This document shows, one piece after another, positions 1,980 to 56,483 of a stretch of DNA of 64,000 nucleotides. Made by a program: the position numbers and the translations under genes. The stretch covers positions 135,643 to 199,642 of the forward strand of contig CAWHWM010000004.1 in the NCBI GenBank assembly GCA_963833055.1, read 5' to 3'. Below the pieces are notes generated by a model. The model was not told where the DNA came from. It did not search any database and saw only the letters and a list, made by a program, of their open reading frames with translations. Origin of the DNA: Candidatus Dormiibacterota bacterium. GTDB lineage: Bacteria; Chloroflexota; Dormibacteria; Aeolococcales; Aeolococcaceae. How positions within the stretch are numbered: the stretch's first letter is position 1; each line of letters opens with the position of its first letter.

Positions 1980-3432
1980 TCACCCCTTGGTGATCGGCGG
2001 CTCAAGGAGCCACGCTGCAACCGACACTGGGACTGCCCACACCTCGCCACCGAGATCGAGCACGCTGCGGGTGACGATGACACCACGGTCCGTCAAAACA
2101 CGGAGCGTTGCCGTCTCACGCCTCCAGCGATCATCCACGTATTTGCTCTCGAAGGCCACGCCTCTCATCGATGGCCCGACGAAGTCCACTTCCCTTCGTG
2201 TCGGACGTGCATACATGACCGACGCGAACTGAGGAAACGATCCCGGTTGAAGCCCTTCCATCTGCCGAAGCAAAGTCAGACCGAACTGCTGCTCCGATAG
2301 CGCCGACACCTGTGGACAAGCGGTGTTGTCCGAATCCCGGATGCAGGCAAGGCGCGCCAGCAGCGGGTCAGTGAAGTAGCACTTCGGGTGCGACGCAGAC
2401 GGGGATGCGTGGTCAGGACGTCCCTGGGGGGTCGCCGGATAGCAAAGCCAGGCTGTGAATGTCGCAACCAGGTCATCGACTCGCTCGCGCGCAGTCGCGG
2501 GCGCGACGCCCAGGTTCCGGCCGAGGGATGTCAGGTTCACCGGTTGCGTCAACGCGCTTGCAAGGAGTGCGAGCAGAAGCTGCGCCTTGGCCGGGGTAAA
2601 TTCACGAGCGCGACGGAGTGCTTCCCCGCTGATGACCTCCCAGAGCGCGTTGGTGAAGTCCGGTTGGACCTCCGACTTCTGCAGGAAATCGCTGACTGCC
2701 CGCGGAAATCCCCCGACGCTCAGGTATGCCTCCCAAGCCAGAATGAGGTCCTCAAGCCAAGGCAATAGCTCCCCGATGGCCGCAGCCGACGCCGGATCGC
2801 GAAACTCGGACGCGCTGATGTGGAGTCCGTCGTCCGGCAGGCGAAGGCCTGTGGCCCTGCAAAATTGACGAAAGCCCATGGGGAGGAGCAGTCGATCGCT
2901 ATCGCGAGCGTCACCGCGCCGGCCGGCGAGGGCCTTCACTGCGTCGTCGAGTTCCGCGCATGGATGATCCGGTGAGAACGACGCAATCGCTACGAAAGCC
3001 AGCATCGTTGTCGCGTAGCCACTTGATGGTGGTCCACCACTTGCCGCTGACCGCGGTGATTTCATCCAGGAACCAGTAGCGCGGCTCATCCGCACTCCTC
3101 GTGGCAACGGTTCGCGCCGTCTTCACCAGCCGTTCCAGGTCGTTGGCGTTCAGCTCATCGCAGGGGAAGTGGATGATCCGGCGCGGAGAGATGCCGGATT
3201 GGAGGAGCGCGTAGATCGCCCTCTTCAGCTCCACCGACTTCCCGACCCGGCGGGGCCCTCTGAGGATGTAGAGGCCACCGGGCTCAAGGTTCTGGAGTGG
3301 TCTCGGCTCGTAGAACAACCGACCACCCTGCTGCAGCACGGCAATATCGGGGTCGTGCAGCTGCCAGTTCAGGGGGTCCTTCCACCAGGGGCAGACTGCT
3401 CCCAGCCTCTGGAGGAGCTCGCTGTTATTCAC
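1980..3432 (-). pseudogene. AAA+ ATPase of the AAA_14/DUF4143 family, one frameshift as sequenced
   Basis: The N-terminal ORF (2911-3432) carries a Walker A motif (LRGPRRVGKS) and a Walker B-like motif (YWFLDEI). The continuation (1980-3107) is in another frame and has the DUF4143-type C-terminal region (ALAGRRG...LLPMGFRQF...). The frames join if one base of the CC pair at 2954-2955 is removed, giving SSMRELDDAVKALAGR. Confidence 0.7.
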
Positions 3433-4246: not shown

Positions 4247-5198
4247 CATCGGTCCACGGCTGGACAGCCGGCTCCGGGGTAAGTTCGACCGTATCGAGGC
4301 GGAGGCTCCGCCGGAACGTCTCATGAGCTTCCAGCCACGCGCCGCCAGGCGTCGCCACCGGCTGCTGAACGCCGTCGTCGGCGTGGCCGCGGTGGCGGTC
4401 GTCGCGGGAGCGGCAACCGTCTTCGCATTGGAACTCGCTGGGCATGCACGTCCGGCGCCGGCGCCGGCACCGGCCTCAGCGCCGGGAGGCCCGCTCCCCA
4501 AGATGCCCGTCTTCAGCCCGCAGCCCGACCCGAACGTCTACAAGGACCTTCCGCTGCCGGCCTATGACACGGGGTTTCCAAAGTCGTGGTACATCGTGGT
4601 CCCGCTCACCAAGCACAGCGGATCGGCCGTACTGCCCGCTTTCATCCCCAGCGGGTGGGAGTACATCCAATACGCGTGCGTTGGACCAGGACACCTGCAG
4701 CTCGAGACCCCCGACGGTGTGGTCAACGAGAGCCTCAAGCCGTGCTCGAGCTCGACCAAACCCGTCGACGCGCAGATTTCAGGTGCGAGTGGCCCGTTGC
4801 ACGGTGCACCGGTCGCGTTGACGGTGGTCGCCAGCCCGTCCGTGCGCTGGGAGATGGTCGTTGCAGTGACGGCGCCGCCGACCAAGCTCCCGACACTGCC
4901 GGCCCTGCCTGCTGGCGCCCAGGTGTTGGTTCCTTTGACCTATGGAAACGGCATCGCGGCACTTCCGAGCTTCACTCCCCACGCCAACCTTTCGATGGAG
5001 TGGTGGTGCTCAGGGCCCGGCGGCATCCTGGTGTTCGTATCGAACGGAAACGAAAGCCAGGGCGCGTCGAACTGCGGTGTCAGCGGGAGTGGTGGGTCGG
5101 ATGACTACACCGGGAAACGTGAAACGCTGGTGGTCGACGTGAGTCCCGCCAACCAGTGGGAGATCATCGTCTACTGGCAGCCGGACCAGTCCGGGTAG
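4239..5198 (+). CDS. single-pass membrane protein coupled to the ECF sigma gene; putative anti-sigma factor
   Basis: Its ATG overlaps the end of the sigma gene (4239-4246). It has a short cytoplasmic N-terminus, one TM helix (LLNAVVGVAAVAVVAGAATVFAL), a Pro/Ala linker, and a roughly 230-aa extracytoplasmic domain containing Cys residues. There is no ZAS (HxxxCxxC) motif, so the function is inferred from position only. Confidence 0.55.
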   Translation: MIDIGPRLDSRLRGKFDRIEAEAPPERLMSFQPRAARRRHRLLNAVVGVAAVAVVAGAATVFALELAGHARPAPAPAPASAPGGPLPKMPVFSPQPDPNVYKDLPLPAYDTGFPKSWYIVVPLTKHSGSAVLPAFIPSGWEYIQYACVGPGHLQLETPDGVVNESLKPCSSSTKPVDAQISGASGPLHGAPVALTVVASPSVRWEMVVAVTAPPTKLPTLPALPAGAQVLVPLTYGNGIAALPSFTPHANLSMEWWCSGPGGILVFVSNGNESQGASNCGVSGSGGSDDYTGKRETLVVDVSPANQWEIIVYWQPDQSG

Positions 5199-5222: not shown

Positions 5223-6101
5223 ATGACCTCAACTCCCACTCGACGACTCGGCACATACGACGTCTCCGCCATCGGTTTCGGCGCTATGCAGCTTCCCGGC
5301 CGTGGCGTGTTCGGACCACCCAAAGATCGTGATCAAGCGCTGAAGGTCCTCCGCCGCGCGACGGAACTTGGCATCAATCACATCGACACCGCGCAGTATT
5401 ACGGCCCCGATGTCGCCAACGAGCTGATCTACAGCGCGCTGCACCCATATCCCGCCGACCTGGTGCTCGTGAGCAAAGTCGGAGCCCGCCGGGACCAAAG
5501 GGGAGGCTGGCTACCGGCCAACACACCCGAGGAGCTCCGCGCCGGAGTCGAGGCGAATTTGGCGTCGTTGCACGTGGACCAATTGGGTGTCGTCAATTTG
5601 CGATGCGGCGAAGCGGGGGAGCCCAATGACTTCTTTGACGATCAGGTGGGCGCGATGGCTGCCATGCATGAGGCGGGAATGATCGGCGGCGTCGGTGTGA
5701 GCAACGTCTCGGTTGCGCAACTCGAGCGCGCGCGGTCGATCACCGAGATTGTCTGCGTCCAGAACGCCTACAACCTGCGCGACCGTGACTCCGAACCGGT
5801 GCTGGAGGCGTGCGAAACCGCTGCGATTGCGTTTGTTCCCTTCTTCCCACTGGGGTCGGCATTTGGCGCCTCGGTGGACGTCACAGCGGACCAAGCAGTG
5901 ATGAACGTCGCGCACCGGCTCGATGCAACCACTGCACAGGTAGCACTGGCATGGCTGCTGGCACGGTCTGCTCAGATACTCCTCATCCCTGGGACGTCCT
6001 CGGTCGCGCACCTTGAGGAAAACGTCGGCAGCGCGTCGCTTGTTCTCGACGATCAGGCACTCGAAGAGCTCGCCGCACCGCCGGCGAACGGGACCAGGTA
6101 G
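5223..6101 (+). CDS. aldo/keto reductase family oxidoreductase
   Basis: 292 aa with family-typical blocks: IGFGAMQL, GINHIDTAQYYG, VCVQNAYNL, FFPLGS and LLIPGTSSVAHLEEN. Confidence 0.85.
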   Translation: MTSTPTRRLGTYDVSAIGFGAMQLPGRGVFGPPKDRDQALKVLRRATELGINHIDTAQYYGPDVANELIYSALHPYPADLVLVSKVGARRDQRGGWLPANTPEELRAGVEANLASLHVDQLGVVNLRCGEAGEPNDFFDDQVGAMAAMHEAGMIGGVGVSNVSVAQLERARSITEIVCVQNAYNLRDRDSEPVLEACETAAIAFVPFFPLGSAFGASVDVTADQAVMNVAHRLDATTAQVALAWLLARSAQILLIPGTSSVAHLEENVGSASLVLDDQALEELAAPPANGTR

Positions 6102-6135
6102 CACGGCGCACGCGCGGTAAGTTCGGAAGAACAGT

Positions 6136-6225
6136 TGGCGGAGGGAGAGGGATTCGAACCCCCGGGGGCTTGGCGGCCCCTGCGGTTTTCAAGACCGCTC
6201 CGATCAACCGCTCCGGCATCCCTCC
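6136..6225 (-). tRNA. tRNA-Ser (anticodon UGA), CCA encoded
   Basis: The reverse complement reads GGAGGGA-TG-CCGGAGCGGTTGATCGG...GCGGT-CTTGAAA-ACCGC-(long variable arm AGGGGCCGCCAAGCCCCCG)-GGGGGTTCGAATCCCTC-TCCCTCC-G-CCA. It has a 7-bp acceptor stem, a TTCGAAT T-loop, and a long extra arm typical of Ser. Confidence 0.9.
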
Positions 6226-6311
6226 GCGTGGGCACCGCCAGTTTAAGCGGCCCGGGCTGTCGCGGTCAGGCAGCATCGCGATGATTGACGTCCGTCCTGA
6301 GGGCGGTAAGG

Positions 6312-45054: not shown

Positions 45055-45225
45055 ACAGACGACTCTCCTTTCGGCGGTGGACTCCCTTCAGCCTAACGGG
45101 ACGCCCTCATGCGAGGCTCGGGGTGTTGCCGGAGTGGTCAGTGCCGCAATGCACACCCTCCGATGCACGCAGTCATGGTTCCATGTGCGGCTCATCGGCA
45201 CGGATTCCCACGGAGGCGCTCACCC

Positions 45226-46179
45226 ATGCGCGGCATGTTCCCGGCCATCGAACCGCGCGAGACCGGCATGCTGGCGGTCGGCGACGGCCACGAGCTGTAC
45301 TGGGAGCGCTGCGGCAATCCCGAAGGCCTTCCTGCGGTCTTTCTGCATGGCGGACCGGGATCTGGGTGCCGTCCCAACCAGCGCCGGATCTTCGATCCGG
45401 ATCTCTACGACGCCGTGCTCTTCGACCAGCGCGGAGCGGGCCGGAGCCGGCCGCTCGCGAGCGAACCGGATGCGGACCTGAGCACCAACACCACACAGCA
45501 TCTGATCGCCGACATCGAGCAGCTCCGCGAGCACCTCGGCATTGATCGCTGGACCGTGCTCGGCATGTCCTGGGGCAGCACGCTCGGCATTGCCTACGCC
45601 GAGGCGCATCCGGACCGTGTGAAGGCGCTCGTCGTGGCGCTGGTGGGGACCACGTCGCGCCGCGAGGTGGAGTGGATGACCCAGGACGTCGGACGGATCT
45701 TTCCACGGGAGTGGGACCGTTTCGCCCGCGCCGTCCCTCCGGAGTTGCGGCATCTGCGGCTGGTCGACGCCTACGCGACCCTCCTGTTCGATCCAGATCC
45801 CGAGGTGCGCGACCACGCCGCGCGGGAGTGGTGTGCGTGGGAGAACGCGCACGTCTCGCTGGCCCCGGATGCCAGTCCCAATCCCCGCTACGAAGACCCC
45901 GAGTACCGGCTCCGGTTTGCCCGCCTGGTCACCCATTACTGGCGCAATGCCGCCTTCCTGGAGGAGGGGCAACCGCTGCGAGACGCGGCGTTGCTGAACG
46001 GAATTCCCGGCATGCTCATCTGCGGGAAGTACGACGTCAGCAGCCCGCTGGAGACCGCATGGCGGCTGTCCAATGTCTGGACGACCAGCAGGCTCGAGGT
46101 CGTCGGTGATTCCGGCCATGGCGGTGGCGATGCCTTCCTCTCGACGGTCATCGAGTCACTCATCGAGCTGGCGGGATAG
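45226..46179 (+). CDS. pip: prolyl aminopeptidase (proline iminopeptidase, alpha/beta hydrolase)
   Basis: ATG at 45226 gives MRGMFPAIEPRETGMLAVGDGHELYWERCGNPEGLPAVFLHGGPGSG.... Also present are DQRGAGRS and the nucleophile block LGMSWGSTL. The ORF as tracked starts at 45109. Confidence 0.85.
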   Translation: MRGMFPAIEPRETGMLAVGDGHELYWERCGNPEGLPAVFLHGGPGSGCRPNQRRIFDPDLYDAVLFDQRGAGRSRPLASEPDADLSTNTTQHLIADIEQLREHLGIDRWTVLGMSWGSTLGIAYAEAHPDRVKALVVALVGTTSRREVEWMTQDVGRIFPREWDRFARAVPPELRHLRLVDAYATLLFDPDPEVRDHAAREWCAWENAHVSLAPDASPNPRYEDPEYRLRFARLVTHYWRNAAFLEEGQPLRDAALLNGIPGMLICGKYDVSSPLETAWRLSNVWTTSRLEVVGDSGHGGGDAFLSTVIESLIELAG

Positions 46180-46206
46180 AGCCTGCGCTGACCCGCAGCG
46201 TGTTGC

Positions 46207-46235
46207 TTGCGCGGCGAACATCTGTTCGATACACT
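46207..46235 (+). promoter_or_regulatory. SOS promoter of imuA-imuB: LexA (Cheo-type) box between -35 and -10
   Basis: TTGCGC (46207-46212), a 17-nt spacer, then TACACT (46230-46235). The spacer contains the perfect palindrome CGAACATCTGTTCG (46215-46228), which matches the Gram-positive/actinobacterial LexA consensus (T)CGAAC-N4-GTTCG(A). Confidence 0.75.
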
Positions 46236-46392
46236 GGCGGTCCCGCCTCGGCGCTCCTGCTCTCCGTCCCAGTAGGCGATGGCTTTACCCCAGTGAGGAG
46301 CGATGCCCGATTCCCTGTCCGCCGCTCTGGCGACACTTCGAACCCGCTACGGTCCCCAGGCACTCCGCCGTGGCGGGTTGCCGGAGGAGGCA
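46207..46392 (+). repeat. copy A of the duplicated promoter / 5'UTR / imuA-5' segment
   Basis: It aligns by eye with 52357-52527: same -35, LexA box and -10, similar 5'UTR, identical RBS plus start (CAGTGAGGAGCGATGCCCGATTC), then CCTGTCCGCCGCTCTGGCGAC and ...CAGGCACT.CG..GT.GCGG..TGCCGG..GAGGCA. Confidence 0.8.
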
Positions 46393-47103
46393 GGCACGTG
46401 GTCCACCGCAGTGCCGGTCCTCGATGGGGTGCTCACGCCGGGTGGGTTGCCGCACGGCCGGGTCACGCTGCTTGCCGCGGCAGGTCGTGGGCCCTCGGGC
46501 CGGCTGACGCTGCTGCAGTCGCTCGTCGCGCTGGCGAGCCGTTCGCACGACACCGGCTATGTGGATCTTGCGGGCACGCTCGACCCCGGCTTTCTCGCCG
46601 ATCTCGGCGCTGACCTCGACGCCTGTCTGGTGATCTCCCCCGGCACCGAGAGGTGGGAGCGGGGGTTGGTCATGGCGCGCGCCCTGGTGGTCGCGGGCAT
46701 GCCGTGGGTGGGAGTGGCGCTGGGCGGGGAGCAATCCCGGCCGTCGCTCTGGGAGCACGCGCTTGCCGCGCTTGCCGAGGCTGTCGCCAAGCGCGGAGCG
46801 GTCTGCGTCATCGCCACGCCGGCGCCGGTGGCGGCACCGCTTCGCCACGCATCGTCGCTCACGCTCGTCTGCACGGCTGCGGGCTGGCAGCGTGCCAACG
46901 GCGATGTGGCCGGGCTGCGGGTCCGCCTCACCACCGGCAAGAGCAAGCTCGGCGCGCCCGGCGCCGAGGCCACCGTGCTGCTCCGCTACCCCCGTCCCTA
47001 TGCCACCGCCGAGGTGGTGGGGCTGCCCAGTGTCGTCGTGCCGCGGTTGCAGCCGATCTCGGTGCCGATCCCGGATGTGGCCGGCGTGGCGGCTCGAGGT
47101 TGA
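46303..47103 (+). CDS. imuA: ImuA (ImuA') - RecA/SulA-fold accessory protein of the imuA-imuB-dnaE2 mutasome
   Basis: 266 aa. It sits directly behind a LexA box and directly ahead of a Y-family-like gene. It has a degenerate RecA-like P-loop region (GRVTLLAAAGRGPSGRLTLLQSLVA) and a beta-strand core (DACLVISP...ALVVAGMPWVGVAL). Position and size are typical for ImuA/ImuA'. Confidence 0.7.
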   Translation: MPDSLSAALATLRTRYGPQALRRGGLPEEAGTWSTAVPVLDGVLTPGGLPHGRVTLLAAAGRGPSGRLTLLQSLVALASRSHDTGYVDLAGTLDPGFLADLGADLDACLVISPGTERWERGLVMARALVVAGMPWVGVALGGEQSRPSLWEHALAALAEAVAKRGAVCVIATPAPVAAPLRHASSLTLVCTAAGWQRANGDVAGLRVRLTTGKSKLGAPGAEATVLLRYPRPYATAEVVGLPSVVVPRLQPISVPIPDVAGVAARG

Positions 47104-47104
47104 G

Positions 47105-48310
47105 GTGCGCGTTCTCTGTGCTCGCCATCCGCATCTCGGGTTGCTGGCAGCCCTCCGCCGCTATCCGGAGCTGCGCGGCGAGCCGGTGATCCTGGGGGGC
47201 GCTCCCGAGCTGCGCCTCCCGGTGGTCGCCGCTTCGGCGGCGGCTCGAGCGGCCGGGGTGCGGGTGGGGCAACCGCTCCGCCAGGCGCAGCAATCCTGCC
47301 CCGCCGCAGTGTTCGTCCCGCTCGATCCCGACGGTGTCGCACGGCTGCGCGCCGCAGTCTGCGCCGAGCTCCACCGGCTCTCGCCCACGGTGGAAGCCGG
47401 CGATGAGGAGGCATTCGGCGATCTCTCCGGCCGCCACGCCGAGTTTCCCGACGAAGCCGCCTGGGCGTCCGCCCTCGCTCGCGGATTGCGCGGCGTGCTC
47501 GATGTGGAGATCGCCGTGGGCGTGGCGGGATCGCGATTCGTCGCACGTCTGGCGGCACGGTCGAGCCATCCCGGCCGCATCCGCCGGGTTCGATCCGGCG
47601 AGGAAGCCGTCTTCCTGGCGCCGCTGCCGCTCGACGTGCTGCCGGTCGATCCCGCAGTCACCGCCCGGCTCGCCGCCTTCGGGCTCGACTGTCTCGGCGC
47701 CGTGGCCGGCCTCGGTCCAGCCGATCTGCAGCGCCAGTTCGGTCCCGACGGGCTCCGGCTGTACCGGCTGGCGCGTGGCGAGGACAGCGGGGGGATCAAC
47801 CCGGTGCCGGCACAGCGGGCATGGAGCGAGCGGCTCGTGCTCGATGGCGCCACTGGGGATCTCGAGATCCTGCTTCGCGGAGTCCGGCAGTGCACCACCG
47901 CCCTCGGTGGCCGGCTCGCCGCAGAATCCCTGGCGGCGGGTGAGGTGAGCGTGGTGTTCGAGATCGAGGAGGCCGAGGCGATCTCGGTTTCGGTGGTGCC
48001 ACCGGCACCGTCGGGCAACGTGGGTGAGCTCTGGACGGCGGCGCTCGGCCTCCTCGGTGCGTTCAAGATCCAGGCACCGGTGGCAGCTGTCCGGGTCGGG
48101 GTGACCCGGCTGACCCCGGCGGCAGGCCGCCAGGCCGATCTGCTCCGTCCTGGCGACGGCGCCCACGATGCGGTGGTCGCCACGGCGGATCGCCTCCGCA
48201 GCCGCTTCGGCACGGCCACCGTGCGCCGGCCGCGGCTCGCGCTCGATCCCGGCGACCTTCCGGAGCGGCGTTTCACGTGGGAGGCGCCGGTCGTCGCTTT
48301 GACGTCGTAG
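47105..48310 (+). CDS. imuB: ImuB, Y-family DNA-polymerase-like protein (core only; C-terminal module apparently missing)
   Basis: GTG at 47105 gives (M)RVLCARHPHLGLLAALRRYPELRGEPVILGG..., the usual ImuB/DinB-like N-terminus. An alternative ATG lies at 47075. The gene follows imuA with a 2-29 nt junction. It ends ...DLPERRFTWEAPVVALTS, without the W-W...R-D-Y...terminal block I associate with ImuB C-termini. Confidence 0.75.
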   Translation: MRVLCARHPHLGLLAALRRYPELRGEPVILGGAPELRLPVVAASAAARAAGVRVGQPLRQAQQSCPAAVFVPLDPDGVARLRAAVCAELHRLSPTVEAGDEEAFGDLSGRHAEFPDEAAWASALARGLRGVLDVEIAVGVAGSRFVARLAARSSHPGRIRRVRSGEEAVFLAPLPLDVLPVDPAVTARLAAFGLDCLGAVAGLGPADLQRQFGPDGLRLYRLARGEDSGGINPVPAQRAWSERLVLDGATGDLEILLRGVRQCTTALGGRLAAESLAAGEVSVVFEIEEAEAISVSVVPPAPSGNVGELWTAALGLLGAFKIQAPVAAVRVGVTRLTPAAGRQADLLRPGDGAHDAVVATADRLRSRFGTATVRRPRLALDPGDLPERRFTWEAPVVALTS

Positions 48311-48345
48311 GCTTCGCCTCTGGTCGACACGAGAGGAGCCGTCTG

Positions 48346-51300
48346 TTGATCTGCGCCAGCTGTGGTGGGGAAAACGAACCCGGACGCCGGTTCTGCGGTG
48401 ATTGCGGCCGTCCGCTGACCCTTGCATGTCCGGCCTGTGGCGCCGCCAACTCGCCGCGGGTGCGCTTCTGCGGTGACTGTGGCGCGCCACTCGGGATTGC
48501 CACAGGTGCGGCACACGACTCTCCGGCAGAACCACCCGTCAGCGTGGCCTCGGCCGCACCGCTCACCGAGCGCCGCCACGTCTCGATCCTGTTCGCGGAC
48601 CTGGTCGGTTTCACCACCCTCGCCGAAGCTCGCGACTCAGAGGAGGTTCGCGATCTGCTCACCCGGTACTTCGGTGCCTGCCAGACGGTGATCGGACGCT
48701 ACGGCGGGGTCGTCGAGAAGTTCATCGGCGACGCGGTGATGGCGGTCTGGGGGACGCCGGTGGCGAAGGAGGACGACTCGGAACGGGCGGTCCGCGCCGC
48801 GCTCGAGATCGTCGACGCAGTGACGCAGCTCGGCATCGAGTTGGGTGCCCCGGAACTGCGTGCTCGAGCCGGAGTCCTCACCGGCGAGGCGACCGTCAAC
48901 CTCGGCGCGACCGGACAGGGGATGGTCGCGGGTGACCTCGTGAATACGGCGTCGCGCGTGCAATCCGCCGCGGCGCCGGGCACGGTCCTTGTTGGCGATG
49001 CGACCAAGCGAGCAACGGATGCGGCGATCGAGTACCGGGATACCGGCCTGCACGAGCTCAAAGGAAAGGCCGAGCCGGTGCGGCTGTGGCAGGTCGGGCG
49101 GGTGGTCGCCGGCATCGGCGGGCTGATGAAGGCGGAGGGCCTCGAGCCCCCCTTCGTCGGCCGCGACCGTGAGCTCAAGCTGGTCAAGGATGTCTTTCTC
49201 GCCAGTGCCGACGACGGCAAGGCGCACCTCGTGCAGGTGACCGGGATCGCGGGGATCGGCAAGTCCCGCCTGAGCTGGGAATTCTTCAAATACATGGACG
49301 GTCTCCAGCGGACGTTCCGCTGGCACCGCGGTCGCTGCCTCTCGTACGGCGAGGGGGTCACCTACTGGGCGCTTGCCGAGATGGTGCGTGGACGGGCGGA
49401 CATCCTCGAAGGCGAGGACCGGACGTCGGCGAGGAACAAGCTTCGCGCCGTAGTCGAGCGCACGGTCCCCGACCCTGCCGACCGCACGTTCGTCGAGCCC
49501 CGGCTTGCGCATCTCCTCGGGCTCGAGGAGCACGCCGCGTCCGACAAGTCCGACCTGTTCGCGGGCTGGCGGCTCTTCTTCGAGCGGCTCGCCGCAAGCG
49601 ACCCGGTGATCATGGTCTTCGAGGATCTGCAGTGGGCCGATCCCTCGCTGCTCGATTTCATCGAATACCTGCTGAACTGGTCGCGCGCCTTTCCGATCTT
49701 CGTCATGACGCTGGCTCGCCCCGGCGACGAAGATGAGCGCGGGATCCAAACGCAACGCCACGTCGATCTCCCTGGAACCGCTGCCGGGACGCGCGATGGA
49801 ACTGCTCCTGACCGGACTGGTTCCAGGGTTGCCCGCCGAGCTCACCGCGAAGATCCTGGAGCGAGCCGAAGGAGTGCCGCTCTACGCCGTCGAAACGGTA
49901 CGCATGCTCCTGGACCGCAACCTCCTCGTCCCGGAAGGGTCCGCATATCGCCCAACCGGCCCGATCAAGGATCTGGAAGTCCCCGAAACGCTCCACGCGC
50001 TGATCGCCGCACGGCTCGACGGTCTCTCCGCGCCCGAGCGGCGGCTGATCCAGGAGGCTTCAGTGCTCGGGAAGACCTGCACCCCGGCCGGCCTGGCGGC
50101 AGTTTCCGGCCTTGCGGAGGCACAGATCGAGCCCATCCTGGCGGCGCTCGTCGCGAAGGAGGTCCTGACCGTCCAGGCCGATCCCCGCTCCCCGGAGCGC
50201 GGCCAGTACGCGTTCCTGCAGGACCTGGTCCGAACCGTTGCGTACGAGACGCTGCCGAAGAAGGACCGCAAGGCGATGCACCTCCGTGTCGCCGAGTTCC
50301 TGCAGCGGGCGTGGGGTGTGGACGAGGCAGAGCTTGTCGAGGTGGTCGCATCGCACCTGCTCGAGGCCCACAGCCTTGCGCCGGATGCGGAGGACGCACC
50401 CCTGATCCGCGAGCTCGCCTGCGGGATGCTGATCCGGGCCGGCGAGCGCGCCGCATCGCTTGCGGCACCGGCGGAGGCTCGAGCATATTTCGAGCGCGCG
50501 GCGGAGCTGACCACGGGGCCGACCGAGCGTGCGGCGTTGCTCGAACGCGCCGGCCGCATGGCGATCCAGATGGGTCACCTGGAACAGGCCGCGACGCTCC
50601 TGACCGAGGCGAAGCGGCTCTTCGAGGAGTCCGAACAGTCGCATCCGGCCGCACGGGTCGAGGCTGGATTGGCCGAGATCCATTTCGAGCAAGGTCACCT
50701 CGACCTCGCCATCGAGTTGGCACGGCGTGCCCATGACGTGCTCGCCGGCGACGAGCCGGATGCGGCTTTCGCTCTCGTGACGGGGCAGTTCGGACGGTTC
50801 CTGGCGCTGGCGGCGGAAGACGAGGCGAGTGCGGTGATCGACAAAGCGCTCACTCTTGCGCAGCAACTCCAACTCGCAGAGGTGTACTCGCAAGCGTTGA
50901 GCAGCAAGGCGGTGGCCATCGGGCGCGAGGGGCGGCTCGATGAGGCGGTGACACTGCTCCGACGGGCACTGGAGATCGCGATCGAAGGCGAGTTCACCAG
51001 CGCAACCTTTCGCGCCTGGAACAACCTTGCCGTCTACCTCCTGTACTCGGATCGCTACACAGAGGTCGTCGAGCTGACCGAGGCGATGCTGGAGCTTGCG
51101 CGGCGACAGGGAGACCGCACGAGCGAGTTGACGGCCATGCTCGGCGTCACCACACCGCTTGTGGCGCTCGGCCGCTGGGACGAGGCCGTCCGTTACGTCG
51201 AGGAGGCACAGACAGCCGAGGAGCTCGAAGCCCTCCAATGGGCGGCGGTCCGCACCATCGAATTGGTTGCGATCCACCTCAGGCGCGGCGACATGGACGC

Positions 51301-51907
51301 CGCACGCCGGGTGTTCGACGCGGCGAAGGCGCGTGCCGATGCCCACAACACCGAGATTCGCGTCCGTGTGGGCGCGGCCGAGGTGGAACTCCTCAACGCC
51401 GAAGGCAGACCGGCTGAGGCACTCGCACTGACGGAGCAACTCCTCGAAGCAATTCCAAAGCTGGGCCTGTCCGACCTCGGCATCAAACGCCTCATCGCCC
51501 ATGGAGTTGGAGCCGCTCTCCAGCTTGGTCAGCTCGATGCCGCGGCGGCGATGCTGGCGACGGTTCGCCGGGCGAGACCCGGGATGGTGAGCCCTGAGCT
51601 CCGCGGCCACTGCGCACGGCTGGACGCCCGCCTGTCGGCGCTCCGCGGCGACAACGATGCCGTCGAGGCGGGATTCGAGACAGCGGTTGCGGCGTTCCGC
51701 GAGCTCGGCAGCCCGTTCGAGCAGGGGGTGGCTCTGTGCGAGCTCGCCGAATGGCTCGAAGGGCAGGGCCGTTCGGCCGAGGCCGCGGCCGTCGCGCTCG
51801 AGGCGCGCACATTGTTCGAACGACTCGGTGCGCGCCCATGGCTGGAACGAGTCCGACCGCTGCTCGCGGCGGACTCGTCATTCCCAGTTGCCACGGCGTC
51901 CAGCTGA
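48346..51907 (+). pseudogene. double-zinc-ribbon / class III adenylate-guanylate cyclase / AAA(STAND-like) ATPase / TPR multidomain protein, one frameshift as sequenced
   Basis: TTG at 48346 lies behind the RBS GAGAGGAG (48331-48338). Domains in order are a double zinc ribbon (CASCGGENEPGRRFCGDCG...CPACGAANSPRVRFCGDCG), a cyclase core (RRHVSILFADLVGFT...EKFIGDAVMAVWG), a P-loop (VTGIAGIGKSRL), and a long helical/TPR-like C-terminus ending LFERLGARPWLERV. ORFs 48277-50736 and 49733-51907 join if one G of GGG at 49741-49743 is removed (ERGSKRNATSISLEPL). Confidence 0.8.
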
Positions 51908-51962
51908 GCGCGCACGACTGAACCGCCGGCACTCATCGCCCGGCACTCACGGAGGAGAGGAC

Positions 51963-52340
51963 ATGCCCAGAGACTGTGTGAACACCACCGCGGCTCCGAT
52001 CTCGCCCGCGTACAGCCAGGCTGTGAAGGCTGCCGGGCTGGTCTTCGTCTCAGGCCAGGCCGGGATCGATCCCGCCACCGGTCACCTTGCCGGCGCCACC
52101 ATCCAGGAGCAGACACGCCAGTGTCTGCGGAACGTGGCTGCGATTCTGGAGGCCGCCGGCAGCTCGCTCGACAAGATCGTCAGCGCCACCTTCATCCTTC
52201 GGCATCCCGAGGACTTTGCGGGGATGAACGAGGAGTGGCAGGCGTGGTTCCCGGTGGATCCCCCGGCCAGGCAGGGCGCCCAGCTTCCCATTGACGTGGA
52301 AGGGCTCCGGGTCTCGATCGCGGTCATCGCAGCCGAGTGA
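51963..52340 (+). CDS. RidA/YjgF/UK114 family protein
   Basis: ATG at 51963 lies behind GGAGGAGAGG. 125 aa with AAPISPAYSQAVKAAGLVFVSGQAGIDPATG and PARQGAQLPIDVEGLRVSIAVIA, typical of the family. Confidence 0.8.
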   Translation: MPRDCVNTTAAPISPAYSQAVKAAGLVFVSGQAGIDPATGHLAGATIQEQTRQCLRNVAAILEAAGSSLDKIVSATFILRHPEDFAGMNEEWQAWFPVDPPARQGAQLPIDVEGLRVSIAVIAAE

Positions 52341-52356
52341 TGCCGGGCCGCGGCGG

Positions 52357-52385
52357 TTGCGATTCGAACATCTGTTCGGTACACT
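52357..52385 (+). promoter_or_regulatory. second SOS promoter (copy B): LexA box between -35 and -10, upstream of the small ORFs and dnaE2
   Basis: TTGCGA (52357-52362), a 17-nt spacer, then TACACT (52380-52385). The spacer contains CGAACATCTGTTCG (52365-52378), identical to the box at 46215-46228. Confidence 0.75.
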
Positions 52386-52527
52386 GACCTCCCGCCGCAG
52401 CGCTCCCGCTCTTCCGTCCCAGGAGACGGCGGTCCTTCATCAGTGAGGAGCGATGCCCGATTCTCCTGTCCGCCGCTCTGGCGACTGTCCTCAGGCACTT
52501 CGGTGTAGCGGCCTGCCGGCAGAGGCA
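52357..52527 (+). repeat. copy B of the duplicated promoter / 5'UTR / imuA-5' segment
   Basis: See copy A. Relative to A it has scattered substitutions, a 2-nt insertion (TC after ATGCCCGATTC) and a gap of roughly 16 nt. Confidence 0.8.
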
Positions 52528-52536
52528 ACTCGATGA
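52453..52536 (+). CDS. 27-codon upstream ORF, relic of the imuA 5' end, coupled to the next ORF
   Basis: It has the same RBS and start as imuA. It encodes MPDSPVRRSGDCPQALRCSGLPAEATR; compare ImuA MPDS...GPQALRRGGLPEEAG. Its TGA overlaps the ATG of the 82-aa ORF (ATGA at 52533-52536). Confidence 0.35.
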   Translation: MPDSPVRRSGDCPQALRCSGLPAEATR

Positions 52537-52781
52537 CCGAGCTGCTCGACGGCGTCATCGAAGTTCGCATCGGTACTGACGGACGGCCGGTTGCGATCCG
52601 GACCGGGTCGGTGTGGGGACGGGTGGCCGAGGTGGTGAACACCTGGCGCGTGGAGACCGACTGGTGGCGGATCCCGGTGGGTCGCGACTACGTGCGGTGT
52701 CTCCTCAATGACGGCGAGTGCATCGATCTCTACAGGGATCTCGGGACCGGCGAGTGGCATCGGGAGCGCCGCTATGACTGA
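52533..52781 (+). CDS. stand-alone 82-aa protein resembling the C-terminal module of ImuB
   Basis: Third-position G/C bias is typical of the genome. The sequence ...EVRIGTDGRPVAIRTGSVWGRVAEVVNTWRVETDWWRIPVGRDYVRCLLNDGECIDLYRDLGTGEWHRERRYD follows the pattern I recall for ImuB C-termini (..ERIE.GWW.....RDY........G....W.YR.......W.LHG.F). It is located between a LexA-box promoter and dnaE2. Confidence 0.55.
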   Translation: MTELLDGVIEVRIGTDGRPVAIRTGSVWGRVAEVVNTWRVETDWWRIPVGRDYVRCLLNDGECIDLYRDLGTGEWHRERRYD

Positions 52782-52804
52782 ACCGTGCGCCGCCCCTTCC
52801 TGGT

Positions 52805-52832
52805 GGCCGCCGGTGGAGGGGCACCGGCGGCC
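52805..52832 (+). terminator. perfect 11-bp-stem hairpin between the small ORF and dnaE2 (attenuator/terminator candidate)
   Basis: GGCCGCCGGTG-GAGGGG-CACCGGCGGCC, 24 nt after the stop at 52781. It is followed by GGGAAAAGGG rather than a U-tract. Confidence 0.35.
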
Positions 52833-52913
52833 GGGAAAAGGGAGAAGCCTCATTTGGTGGTGGGCTGACCCGGCGAATAGTTACACAAATTTGTAGTAGT
52901 TGTCAAGCTGCCG

Positions 52914-55900
52914 ATGCCCGGATTTGCCGAACTCGCCGCCCGTTCCCACTATTCCTTTCTGGAAGGAGCTTCCTCGCCCAAAGCGATGGTCCAGATCGCC
53001 GCGCGTCTCGGGATCTCGGCGCTCGGTCTCTGCGACCGCAACGGGCTGTATGGAGCGGTCGAGCTGATCCAGTCCGCGAAGGCTGCGGGCATCCACCCGA
53101 TCATCGGCACGGAGCTCGAGCTCGCAGGCGGTTCACGAATCCGTCTGCTGGCCCGTAGCAGGACTGGATACCGCCAGCTCTGCCGGGCCGTGAGCGCTTC
53201 GCAGCTCGCCGGCGTGAAAGGTCAGCCGCGCCTGGAGATCAACGGGATCTCGCTGGGCGGACGCGCGAGTGCGATCGTCTCCCGCTCGCGGCGGCCAACG
53301 CTGCCGCCACCGGAACGTCCTGCAGCGCTGCGGCCGACGGCGGGACCGTTTCCGGAGGGGTGGCCGGGATTGCCGTCGACAACGTTGCTTGTCGAGAGCG
53401 AGCCGGCGCGTGTCGATCCGGTTGCGCTTGATGACTGCATCGCACTGATCGGCGGGCCGCGCAGTGCTGTTGTCGATGTGCTGGTCCACGGTGATCGACG
53501 CGAGGCGCTGCGTCATGCGCAACTGGTGCGGGAGTGCTTCGGACGCGAGCGCACGGCGATGCTGGTGAGCAATCACCTGCATCCCGCAGATCGCTGGCTG
53601 GTTGCGGAATGCGCGGCGATTGCGCAGGCAGCGGACATCCCGCTCGTGGCGAGCGCAACGCCGGACCATGCCACGGCAGACGACAAACCGCTGCTCGATG
53701 TGCTGACGGCAATCCGTCATCGCACGACTCTCGACCAGGCTGCGGCGCACGGCCTGCTCCTGCCCAACAGCGAGCACCGGCTCCATGGTGAGGCGGAGCT
53801 TCGTGCGTTGCTTCCCGGCCTCCCTGAGGCGTTCGACAACGCGGCGCGCATCGCCGCCGCGTGTGAGGTGTCACTCGACTTCAGCGACGTGCGCTTTCCG
53901 GGTTTCCCCGTGCCGGCGGGGGAGACGCCGTTCTCCGTGCTCTACGGACTCTGTCAGGAGGCCGTGCAGCGCAAGTACCACCCCATGACTCGCGCTGTCG
54001 CCGCGCGCCTGCAGCGCGAGCTCGATGTCATCGAGAAGACGCATCTCGCCGAGTTCTTCCTGATCACCTGGGACATCATGAAGTTCGCCCGTGAGCACGG
54101 CATCCCAGGACAGGGACGCGGCAGCGCGGCGGACTCGATCGTCGCCTACCTGCTCGGCATCACGCGTGTCGATCCCGTCGCGCACGACCTGCTCTTCGAG
54201 CGTTTTCTCCACGAAGACCACCAGGGCACGCCCGATATCGACATCGATTTCTCCACCGACCACCGCGAGCAGGTGCTCCAGTACGTCTATGAGAAGTACG
54301 GCCCCGATCGCACCGGGATGGTGGCCAACGTCGTGACCTTCCGGCCCCGCATGGCGATCCGCCAGGTGGGCGCCGCCATGGGCTTTCCGGAAACCGTGGT
54401 CGACAAGCTCAGCACGCACACCGACAGCTGGTACCTCGCCGATATGGAGACAGTGCTGACATCGAGTGGTACACGCACCACGAGGCCGGGTGACGTCGCG
54501 GGGGGGCGCCGGCCCGGCGTGTTCACGGAAGCTGGGACGGAGGGGCCCCCGCGGCGGCAGGACCCGGCCGTCGATGTGTCAAACCACGCGTGGCAGCAAT
54601 TCGTCGAAGTCCTTCGCCGCATCGAGGGGACGCCTCGACATCTGAGCATTCATGTCGGCGGGATGCTCGTGACGGGGGAACCGCTCGTCGATGTTGTGCC
54701 GGTGGAGCGCGCGACGATGCCGGGGCGAGTCGTCGTGCAATTCGACAAGGACGACGTGGAGGATCTCGGGCTCATCAAGATGGATCTGCTCGGGCTGCGC
54801 ACGCTGTCGGCGGTGGCGGAGTGCCTCGACCTCATCGAGCAGACCACCGGACAGCGACCCGACCTCGACACGTTGCCGCTCGACGACCAGCGTGTGTTCG
54901 ACGTGATCTGCAAGGTGGACACCATCGGGCTCTTCCAGATCGAATCGCGCGCGCAGCAGCAATCGCTCTGGCAGTCACAGCCGCGCTGTTTCAACGATCT
55001 GATCGTGCAGGTGGCGATCATCCGTCCCGGTCCGATCCAGGGCGACGCGGTCCATCCGTATCTCCGCCGCCGTCAGGGGCTCGAGCCGGTGACCTACCTG
55101 CATCCCAAGTTGGAGCCGATCCTGGCAGAAACATGCGGCGTCGTCCTGTACCAGGAGCAGATCCTGCGCATCGTCATGGAGCTCGCCGCATACACCGCCG
55201 GTGAAGCGGATCGATTCCGGCGGGCGATGAGCCGGCACCGTTCGCGGGTGGAGATGGAGGAGCTGCGAGACGGCTTCATCCGGCGCTGCATCGAGCACGA
55301 CGTCACTGAGGAGGTGGCGCAACAGATCTTCAAGAGCGTCGCCGGTTTTGCGGAGTTCGGGTTCTGCAAATCGCACGCCGCGGCGTTCGCGCGCACCGCG
55401 TATGAGACGGCGTGGCTGCGCATGACCTATCCCGCGCACTACACGTGCGCGCTGCTCAACGCGCAGCCGATGGGTTTCTACCATCCGTCGGTGCTCGTCG
55501 ATGACGCCAAGCGGCACGGCGTCAAGGTCCTGCCGGTCGACGTCACCAGGAGCCGTGCACGCTGCCTGGTGGAGGCGACCGGCGCGGCCGGCTTCGGGAT
55601 ACGGCTCGGATTCGCATACGTGCGCGGGCTGGGACCCACGGCACGCGCAGCGTGCGACGACGCGGTGGTCGCCGGAGCGAACACATCGGTGGCCGCGTTC
55701 TGGCGGCACACGCTCCTGCCCCGGGTGGCGATGGAGAACCTCATCCGTGTGGGCGCCTTCGACGCCGTCGCCGGCGGGCAGTCGCGCCGCCAGCTGCTCT
55801 GGACCCTGAAGGAGACCGAGGAGTCACTGCCGCCGCGAAAACGACGCAGGGCAACCATCGCGCCGGCCGAGCAGACGGTGATCGCTGCCGCCGTGGTGAC

Positions 55901-56483
55901 CGGTCCACCACGGGGCAGTGGTGCGGTTGCCGGCAACCGGCTTGGCGATGCGCCGCATACCCCGCACGATCCGAGCAGCGATCCGGCGCCACCGCTCGTA
56001 TCGCTGCCGGCGCCGCCGCCGATCCTGCCCGAGATGGACGAGCGCACCCGCGTGAACACCGAGTACGCGATCACCGAGGTGAGCACCGGGCCTCACCTGG
56101 TCTCATTCATGCGCGAGCGGCTCAACGCACTCGGCTGCGTCCCACTCGCGAAGGTGCGCGACATGGTGGACGGCACGCGGATCCGCGTCGCTGGGTTGGT
56201 GATCACACGCCAGCAGCCGTCGACAGCCCGAGGATTCCGGTTCTTCACCCTCGCGGACGAGGACGCCAACCTCGACCTGGTGTTCCGCCCAGCGGTGGTG
56301 CAGCGGACCCTCGAGGTGGCGCGGCATCCGCTGCTCATGGTCGACGGCAGGCTGCAGGTCGAGCTGGGCAGGGTCAACGTGGTCGTTGAGCGGGTGACCG
56401 CGCTCACGCCGGACGGCGACCCGATCGACCGCCCGGGACCGGTCCCCGAGAGCGGATTCCGCGGATCGCACGACTACCGCTGA
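52914..56483 (+). CDS. dnaE2: error-prone DNA polymerase III alpha-subunit paralog DnaE2
   Basis: 1189 aa. The PHP-domain N-terminus is MPGFAELAARSHYSFLEGASSPKAMV..LGISALGLCDRNGLYG. Pol III alpha core blocks are present (FFLITWDIMKFAREHGIPGQGRGSAADSIVAYLLGIT, PDIDIDF, KMDLLGLRTLS, FQIESRAQ, IIRPGP, YQEQ). It lacks the tau/epsilon-interacting C-terminal extension of DnaE1. It sits in an SOS-boxed imuA-imuB context. Confidence 0.9.
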   Translation: MPGFAELAARSHYSFLEGASSPKAMVQIAARLGISALGLCDRNGLYGAVELIQSAKAAGIHPIIGTELELAGGSRIRLLARSRTGYRQLCRAVSASQLAGVKGQPRLEINGISLGGRASAIVSRSRRPTLPPPERPAALRPTAGPFPEGWPGLPSTTLLVESEPARVDPVALDDCIALIGGPRSAVVDVLVHGDRREALRHAQLVRECFGRERTAMLVSNHLHPADRWLVAECAAIAQAADIPLVASATPDHATADDKPLLDVLTAIRHRTTLDQAAAHGLLLPNSEHRLHGEAELRALLPGLPEAFDNAARIAAACEVSLDFSDVRFPGFPVPAGETPFSVLYGLCQEAVQRKYHPMTRAVAARLQRELDVIEKTHLAEFFLITWDIMKFAREHGIPGQGRGSAADSIVAYLLGITRVDPVAHDLLFERFLHEDHQGTPDIDIDFSTDHREQVLQYVYEKYGPDRTGMVANVVTFRPRMAIRQVGAAMGFPETVVDKLSTHTDSWYLADMETVLTSSGTRTTRPGDVAGGRRPGVFTEAGTEGPPRRQDPAVDVSNHAWQQFVEVLRRIEGTPRHLSIHVGGMLVTGEPLVDVVPVERATMPGRVVVQFDKDDVEDLGLIKMDLLGLRTLSAVAECLDLIEQTTGQRPDLDTLPLDDQRVFDVICKVDTIGLFQIESRAQQQSLWQSQPRCFNDLIVQVAIIRPGPIQGDAVHPYLRRRQGLEPVTYLHPKLEPILAETCGVVLYQEQILRIVMELAAYTAGEADRFRRAMSRHRSRVEMEELRDGFIRRCIEHDVTEEVAQQIFKSVAGFAEFGFCKSHAAAFARTAYETAWLRMTYPAHYTCALLNAQPMGFYHPSVLVDDAKRHGVKVLPVDVTRSRARCLVEATGAAGFGIRLGFAYVRGLGPTARAACDDAVVAGANTSVAAFWRHTLLPRVAMENLIRVGAFDAVAGGQSRRQLLWTLKETEESLPPRKRRRATIAPAEQTVIAAAVVTGPPRGSGAVAGNRLGDAPHTPHDPSSDPAPPLVSLPAPPPILPEMDERTRVNTEYAITEVSTGPHLVSFMRERLNALGCVPLAKVRDMVDGTRIRVAGLVITRQQPSTARGFRFFTLADEDANLDLVFRPAVVQRTLEVARHPLLMVDGRLQVELGRVNVVVERVTALTPDGDPIDRPGPVPESGFRGSHDYR

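Follow-up and report, generated by a model that had tools for sequence, protein, structure and literature searches.

A second putative LexA-type promoter in a split imuA-imuB/dnaE2 locus of Dormibacterota, probably the stump of a duplicated imuA-imuB block

A 64,000-nucleotide stretch of DNA from a Candidatus Dormiibacterota bacterium (assembly GCA_963833055.1, contig CAWHWM010000004.1, positions 135,643 to 199,642; hereafter the window) carries a cassette for error-prone DNA synthesis in two pieces. The genes imuA and imuB come first, and a small open reading frame (ORF), orf82, followed by dnaE2, lies further downstream. The control region of imuA is present twice: behind a second copy of the putative SOS promoter, located just upstream of orf82, the 5' untranslated region (5'UTR), ribosome-binding site and first codons of imuA are found again. 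We propose that this second copy is what remains of a complete imuA-imuB block. An ancestral SOS operon would have undergone a block duplication, the downstream copy would have collapsed, and the stump would now serve as a LexA-repressed internal promoter with a mini-ORF that couples translation to orf82. From the sequence comparisons presented below, we assign this whole model a probability of roughly 0.7.

The repeat was analysed by using positions 46150-46450 as a blastn query against the whole window. Copy A (46207-46334) and copy B (52357-52485) aligned with 108 identities out of 130 (83%, 3 gaps, E=3e-31), and a second block paired 46352-46392 with 52487-52527 (78% over 41 nt, E=0.001). 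No other match to the repeat better than E=0.05 was found by blastn within the 64 kb. MAFFT aligned the two segments over their whole length, as the original prediction, made from the letters of the window, had stated. That prediction also held for the similar 5'UTRs and for the identical ribosome-binding site and start, since a 23-mer comprising the Shine-Dalgarno sequence (SD), the ATG and three codons, CAGTGAGGAGCGATGCCCGATTC, is the same in copies A (46291-46313) and B (52441-52463). Of the two differences that had been announced for copy B, the gap indeed measures 16 nt, whereas the insertion is of 1 nt and not 2 (GATTC-CC versus GATTCTCC). The net loss of 15 nt restores the reading frame downstream.

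The similarity is collinear, on the same strand, and extends far past the functional motif, as in a segmental (paralogous) duplication. The repeat is a true duplication of the promoter, 5'UTR, ribosome-binding site and first imuA codons, and not a resemblance limited to the 14-bp box. A different explanation would be that two SOS promoters arose independently or convergently, or that the assembly is chimeric, without any duplication; a LexA box followed by TACACT does recur at many unrelated SOS genes. However, homology runs about 150 nt past the box, through the UTR, ribosome-binding site and imuA codons, and ten further independent assemblies, short-read and long-read, show this structure too, so that copy B is not an assembly artefact. 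The alignments of the two copies, and of B copies across relatives, refute convergence and chimerism, which we regard as having practically no chance of being correct.

Both promoter cores are on the + strand and are built alike. The core of copy A (P_imuA, 46207-46235) consists of a -35 TTGCGC (46207-46212), the box CGAACATCTGTTCG (46215-46228) and a -10 TACACT (46230-46235). In the core of copy B (P_B, 52357-52385), the -35 is TTGCGA (52357-52362), the identical box is at 52365-52378, and TACACT at 52380-52385. The box thus sits in a 17-nt spacer in both copies, in the layout originally described. It has the palindromic GAAC-N4-GTTC core of the Gram-positive or Actinobacteria-type LexA (SOS) operator and, placed between TTGCG(C/A) and TACACT, overlaps the core promoter that precedes imuA and the one that precedes imuB-C/dnaE2. 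Exact CGAAC-N4-GTTCG sequences occur at only two sites in the window, 46215 and 52365. The Mycobacterium LexA motif has been established experimentally (PMC3381160).

A scan of genome collections for the box and the -10 showed the promoter block kept at imuA in about 35 Dormibacterota loci. DNA upstream of the -35 is unalignable between clades, and the homology of B copies starts sharply at the -35. Moreover, a 22-mer made of the box and TACACT is identical 22-31 nt before the start codons of several Actinomycetota genes, namely dinB, dnaE2, DUF222 genes, and an ImuB-C-like gene followed by dnaE2. This recurrence at SOS genes supports the operator and -10 assignment, and the 22-31-nt spacing is as expected for leaderless or short-leader SOS transcripts. 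The assignment of the two cores as putative promoters was made on conservation and spacing. Between the stop codon of the upstream hydrolase gene and the imuA -35, a terminator-like hairpin (CTGCGCTGACCCGCAG, then a T-rich tail) is present at 46183-46198; such a hairpin would shield the SOS promoter from transcription arriving from upstream.

Relatives of the locus were gathered from contigs encoding orf82 homologues, from the scan for the box and -10, and by tblastn mapping; their loci are designated below by L numbers. In 16 distinct Dormibacterota loci the cassette is contiguous, in the order promoter-imuA (266 aa)-imuB (401 aa)-orf82-dnaE2, and is followed by the same downstream genes as in the window, encoding a protein of about 390 aa and a Peptidase_S49. 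With 16 such relatives, the contiguous order is the reference, ancestral state, and the repeat does inform on how the locus was rearranged, as had been suggested. The split organisation with a copy B was found in 11 loci: the window, L042, L034, L008, L024, L027, L053, L018/L035, L009/L043, L028/L048 and L067/L029. It is therefore widespread and not private to the window genome. The usual separator is a gene encoding cyclase, ATPase and tetratricopeptide repeat (TPR) domains, with or without ridA.

The content of the insert varies. In L042 (3123-3581) only ridA lies between imuB and the second promoter, and the cyclase-TPR gene is missing; in L034, ridA is cut down to its last ~50 nt; in L024, the insert is partly deleted. 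From L042 and L034, the insert itself appears to be undergoing remodelling. L014 and L019 do have a cyclase-TPR gene upstream of the promoter, but a phosphoesterase gene lies between the two and ridA is missing. These two loci were considered as the exact precursor, with the cyclase directly upstream of the promoter, and were rejected on account of the phosphoesterase gene and the missing ridA; they support the neighbourhood only. In metagenomes, a B-specific 20-mer had 63 chance matches and identified a single true B copy (L067), the pattern being too unspecific for GC-rich DNA.

The junctions of the insert bear on what was duplicated. In 15 of the 16 contiguous loci, imuB ends in VVAG(A/S)(A/T)R and its TGA overlaps the orf82 start as ATGA or GTGA. 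Copy B finishes in the same way. It contains a remnant mini-ORF of 27 codons (MPDSPVRRSGDCPQALRCSGLPAEATR and a stop; 52453-52536, + strand), in which the imuA start and codons 1 to ~27-28, with the +1 and -16 nt changes, are fused in frame to about the last five codons of imuB, and whose TGA overlaps the orf82 ATG (ATGA). Across B copies the mini-ORF terminates with the same overlap, its last residues being AGATR in L034 and L067, ATR in the window and TTR in L024. The same frame is open, with a stop at the overlap or 3 nt before it, in five of the six mini-ORF-bearing B copies checked. The right junction of L067, GCGGGAGCGACCCGATGA, matches the imuB 3' end of L051. The fusion junction itself falls in G-rich runs that resemble each other, GGAGGAGGC in imuA and GGGGGCGAC in imuB.

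On the other side of the insert, L027 has kept, at ~4600-4692 (minus strand of the locus), a decayed copy of the first ~90 nt of orf82 that separates imuB from the cyclase gene. The orf82 5' end is therefore found on both sides. This remnant and the last codons of imuB are gone from the left junction in the window and in most other split loci. In the window, the imuB end (48290-48310) has been replaced: it reads VVALTS, with a TAG coming from DNA upstream of the cyclase gene, versus VVAGATR in contiguous relatives. The junction motif GTCGTAGGCT is common to seven other split loci (L008, L029, L035, L042, L043, L048 and L053).

We propose the following order of events. The ancestral operon would have been P(LexA box)-imuA-imuB(core)-imuB-C(orf82)-dnaE2, in which translation of orf82 was coupled to the imuB stop (ATGA). 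A block comprising the promoter, imuA, imuB and the first ~90 nt of orf82 would have been duplicated in an old ancestor, with the cyclase/ATPase/TPR gene (and ridA) between the copies; a possible route is a tandem duplication that included the upstream neighbours, followed by reciprocal loss. The downstream imuA-imuB copy would then have collapsed through an in-frame, microhomology-flanked deletion extending from imuA codon ~27 to the last five codons of imuB, leaving the promoter and leader, the ribosome-binding site of imuA, and a mini-ORF of 27 codons that ends on the orf82 start codon. This stump (52357-52536) would be an internal promoter at which LexA, bound to the spacer box, occludes RNA polymerase, and the mini-ORF would bring ribosomes to orf82 by termination-reinitiation. 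As an outcome, ImuB-C and DnaE2 would be damage-inducible alongside imuAB, despite 4 kb of inserted genes.

The original prediction placed the events in another order: the cyclase/ridA DNA would first have separated the two halves, and some 170-190 nt, from the promoter to imuA codon 30, would then have been pasted in front of orf82 to re-supply SOS control and translation signals. The duplication stands, and so does its position, from which it can provide orf82-dnaE2 with SOS-type control and translation signals; the late patch probably does not. It is true that only ~170 nt are repeated today, that homology has a sharp left border at the -35, and that in the window the repeat end (GGAGGAGGCAGGC) resembles the imuB 3' end (GGGGGCGACCCG), the last bases not being assignable with certainty there. 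However, in L034 and L067 the 14-18 nt that precede orf82 match the imuB 3' end codon for codon (AGATR and stop), the stop/start overlap of the contiguous operon is exactly preserved, and there is no reason why a pasted fragment should share its frame with the imuB stop. Because the mini-ORF ends with imuB codons and ATGA, and because L027 keeps a duplicate of the orf82 5' end at the other junction, we favour a whole-block duplication followed by an in-frame deletion. Copy B is probably not a 170-nt patch added after separation, a course of events that we consider unlikely.

Comparison with close relatives, which had been recommended as a means of dating the duplication, indicated that it is old and shared by several lineages. 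The 16-nt deletion and the 1-nt insertion are common to the B copies of the window, L042, L034, L008 and L067, and these five together with L024 share substitutions that are absent from all A copies (for instance CTCAGCGCTCCCGC versus the A-type CTCGGCGCTCCTGC). The finding of the same indels and substitutions in several species-level lineages shows that the event is not proper to this genome. A neighbour-joining tree was built with nine A leaders and, L067 being left out, the six B leaders of greatest length; five of these six formed a single clade apart from every A copy. The A and B copies of one genome have 78-82% identity, versus 87-95% for orthologous A copies. These shared derived states and the A/B divergence show that the duplication is old and that the copies have not undergone concerted evolution, which points to one old duplication rather than a recent patch.

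Once duplicated, the two parts of copy B appear to have had different fates. The window, L042 and L034 have 165-168 nt between the box and the orf82 start; L027 has 122 nt, L053 has 62 nt, and L018, L009 and L028 have 44-45 nt. Deletions have shortened the leader in 6 of the 11 B copies. In three lineages the deletions end just after the -10. In the shortest copies (L018 648-692, L009 5622-5666, L028 6211-6256), only the promoter and GGAGGAGGC, formerly imuA codons 27-29, are left; in these versions the run lies 8 nt before the orf82 ATG (GGAGGAGG) and is Shine-Dalgarno-like. The same three loci, L018, L009 and L028, have an extra ~1 kb of unrelated DNA between ridA and the promoter. The promoter core fares better: 10 of the 11 B copies have the exact box, 10 an unaltered TACACT, and 9 an unaltered TTGCG. 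The L067 box differs only in its N4 spacer (variant CGAACATGTGTTCG). This maintenance of the core while the leader decays suggests a working internal promoter of LexA type.

Rather than being a working promoter, copy B could be a neutral fossil, with orf82-dnaE2 read through from the imuA promoter across the cyclase gene and ridA, and with a promoter and a mini-ORF that have no function. No terminator-like site was found between imuB and orf82, and all cassette and intervening genes are on the + strand; one transcript may therefore still span both halves, copy B being an internal promoter. Decay of the leader and mini-ORF is clear, leader identity being 83% among B copies versus 90% among A copies, and two B copies are mutated in the -10 or the box. 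On the other hand, a 30-nt core has survived in 11 lineages while its surroundings were deleted or became unalignable, with deletions halting after the -10 in three of them, and each deletion variant ends either in an overlapping mini-ORF or in a new SD-like run before orf82. In addition, the same box stands together with ImuB-C and dnaE2 as an independent unit in an Actinomycetes genome. A functionless copy B seems to us quite improbable.

Several observations nevertheless weigh against the model of an old block duplication that left a functional stump. First, the core also decays. In L008 (B copy at ~6050-6250) the -10 is TAAGCT, and in L024 (~1983-2180, minus strand) one arm of the box is CAAAC (variant CAAACATCTGTTCG); in these two loci the internal promoter may be losing strength, or its control by LexA. 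Second, a sigma-70 consensus scan called a promoter at neither copy, TTGCGC/TTGCGA and TACACT matching just 7-8 of 12 consensus positions. Third, the mini-ORF of L042 is in a different frame, with its stop 8 nt into orf82, and the upkeep of the mini-ORF frame has a chance probability of ~0.01-0.04 by a rough count over lineages that are non-independent. Fourth, the B leader of L027 is A-like and nests among A copies, beside that of L015, which implies a conversion or a second event. Fifth, none of the genomes found has imuAB twice in full, as the proposed intermediate would. Finally, neither the imuB tree nor the orf82-dnaE2 tree (L001-L053) separates split from contiguous loci, which are interleaved in both.

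With trees so interleaved, a single vertical origin needs several reversions, or lateral replacement by homologous recombination. This suggests that the insert was moved between lineages by homologous recombination through the imuB and dnaE2 flanks, or was lost repeatedly. Repeated loss would proceed, for example, by recombination between the duplicated blocks, or between the orf82'/orf82 repeats while they were extant. As for L027, its second promoter and leader resemble the imuA leader of L015, and neither the other B copies nor its own A copy (L044).

The gene placed behind copy B, orf82 (52533-52781, + strand, 82 aa), had no direct Pfam or NCBIfam match, even at E=10, and an exact look-up in the contig index gave no match. 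It has 84 close homologues, which mostly measure 82 aa and come from metagenome-assembled genomes of Candidatus Dormibacterota. A profile made from 45 homologues retrieved 1070 representatives, among which were the extreme C-termini of Y-family proteins: the profile covers the C-terminal 70-75 residues of PF00817 (IMS-domain) proteins of 372-576 aa, one of which has PF20114 DUF6504 at that place. The AlphaFold2 model of orf82 consists entirely of beta strands (mean confidence score pLDDT, the predicted local distance difference test, 90). A PDB sequence search with the profile gave 0 matches, and a Foldseek search of the model against the PDB nothing below E=0.27, so no fold, SH3-like included, was assigned. 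On this profile evidence, orf82 is a standalone ImuB-C-like domain and hence a member of the mutasome.

An Actinomycetes chromosome (OY969804.1, L040 3067-3343) has the same box and TACACT, 28 nt further on an 83-aa ImuB-C-like protein, and then dnaE2. The hhalign probability for this ImuB-C-like assignment was 97.5%. The unit is free-standing, and its architecture is that of the distal half of the window cassette.

The conserved imuA leader occupies 46236-46302 (+ strand, SD GAGGAG at 46295-46300), and its homologue in copy B, identified from the alignments, 52386-52452 (+ strand, SD GAGGAG at 52445-52450). Over 26 A-type loci, the mean pairwise identity in the 71 nt before the ATG is 88%, versus 72% for third positions of imuA codons; the leader is truly under constraint. 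A stretch of the leader, CGCUCCU, is complementary to the SD region AGGAGCG, and a consensus fold pairs CGCUCCU(GC) with the SD region, the paired columns being invariant. Folding z-scores of single sequences, from -0.15 to -0.86, were not significant, and Rfam gave just one sub-threshold chance match on 45900-53000. Given these z-scores and the invariance of the paired columns, the idea of an RNA element was kept only as a lead. It can be extended, in a tentative and rather doubtful proposal, to the mini-ORF, which measures 12-28 codons (imuA'-'imuB) in this reading: selection might keep the mini-ORF open onto the orf82 start, ImuB-C being made only via termination-reinitiation, while the leader might be an undescribed post-transcriptional element, inherited by both operon halves, that limits mutasome synthesis even after LexA cleavage.

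The other genes of the locus, all on the + strand, were annotated as follows. Upstream of the cassette, an alpha/beta hydrolase gene is present at 45109-46179. The imuA gene (46303-47103) encodes a RecA-like protein of 266 aa (PF00154, 33.2 bits for a cut-off of 27). Its product reaches 20 bits with the NCBIfam ImuA model, for a cut-off of 150; its position and size fit ImuA, and orthologues in relatives are 86-99% identical. The coding part of copy A corresponds to codons 1 to ~30 of this gene (46303-46392). The imuB core gene (47105-48310) encodes a Y-family protein of 401 aa without the ImuB-C domain (PF00817 and PF11799). Every DinB NCBIfam model was below its cut-off for this protein; its N-terminal DxD region is unaligned with active DinB, and a D-E pair aligns with the DinB 'DE' motif.

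Within the insert, the gene with zinc-ribbon, adenylate/guanylate cyclase, AAA_16 and TPR domains (48346-51907, Pfam) is in two frames in the window. The frame switches around 49721-49731; compared with three relatives (GAAGCCG-GCGCG), the window has 1 nt inserted near 49733 (GAAGATGAGCGCG). It is one ORF in three relatives (~1190 aa), and has 1197 aa in L035, so that the window version could be a pseudogene, a split gene or a sequencing error. The ridA-like gene (Rid/L-PSP family, PF01042, TIGR00004; 51942-52340, start codon uncertain) ends with its stop 16 nt before the -35 of copy B (52357-52527, + strand). Downstream of orf82, dnaE2, also called imuC (52914-56483), encodes an error-prone DNA polymerase of 1189 aa (NF004225, 994.5 bits for a cut-off of 939, and Pfam domains).

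Split imuA-imuB/dnaE2 cassettes are known, for example imuA'-imuB and dnaE2 of Mycobacterium tuberculosis, each under LexA (PMC3901139; PMC6511836); the source for split LexA-controlled cassettes is Erill et al. 2006, as summarised in PMC3901139. Surveys indicate that each piece of a split cassette tends to keep LexA control (PMC3901139). The Dormibacterota locus shares with the M. tuberculosis type the three core genes, the partition into imuAB and dnaE2 parts, and a box of the CGAAC-N4-GTTCG class before each. In contrast to that type, its halves are still neighbours, 4 kb apart on the same strand, and its second control region is a visible paralogue of the first that reaches into imuA codons.

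Standalone ImuB-C operons have also been described (Timinskas and Venclovas 2019, PMC6511836; Aravind et al. 2013, PMC3765255), and Deinococcus deserti has an operon lexA-imuY-(243-bp ORF)-imuC (PMC3901139). The likeness to these concerns a Y-family protein without its C-terminal domain, an ~80-aa all-beta protein, dnaE2, and SOS control, the latter predicted here. The published standalone ImuB-C variants are reported without imuA (PMC6511836), whereas the Dormibacterota operon has imuA.

In operon evolution, duplication followed by reciprocal loss changes gene order, and a surviving promoter copy becomes an internal promoter. The Dormibacterota case differs from this general scheme in that the stump keeps a translation-initiation region and a putatively coupled mini-ORF, and in that graded states of decay are preserved across related genomes. 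What was already known is the existence of split imuAB/dnaE2 cassettes with LexA at each part, and of standalone ImuB-C proteins. What appears new is that the paralogous origin of the second SOS control region is visible, that the coupling junction (ATGA) was carried through an in-frame deletion, and that the decay can be followed as a series across genomes; so does the predicted gene set of imuA, ImuB-core, standalone ImuB-C and DnaE2 in Dormibacterota, an uncultivated soil phylum.

Cassettes of imuA, imuB and dnaE2 under LexA control drive damage-induced mutagenesis, including drug resistance in mycobacteria. When a piece of such a cassette has been separated, the source of its LexA site is usually invisible; here it can be read from the sequence. 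The locus is a case study in operon evolution and adds to the range of known mutasome variants; it does not represent a new type of system.

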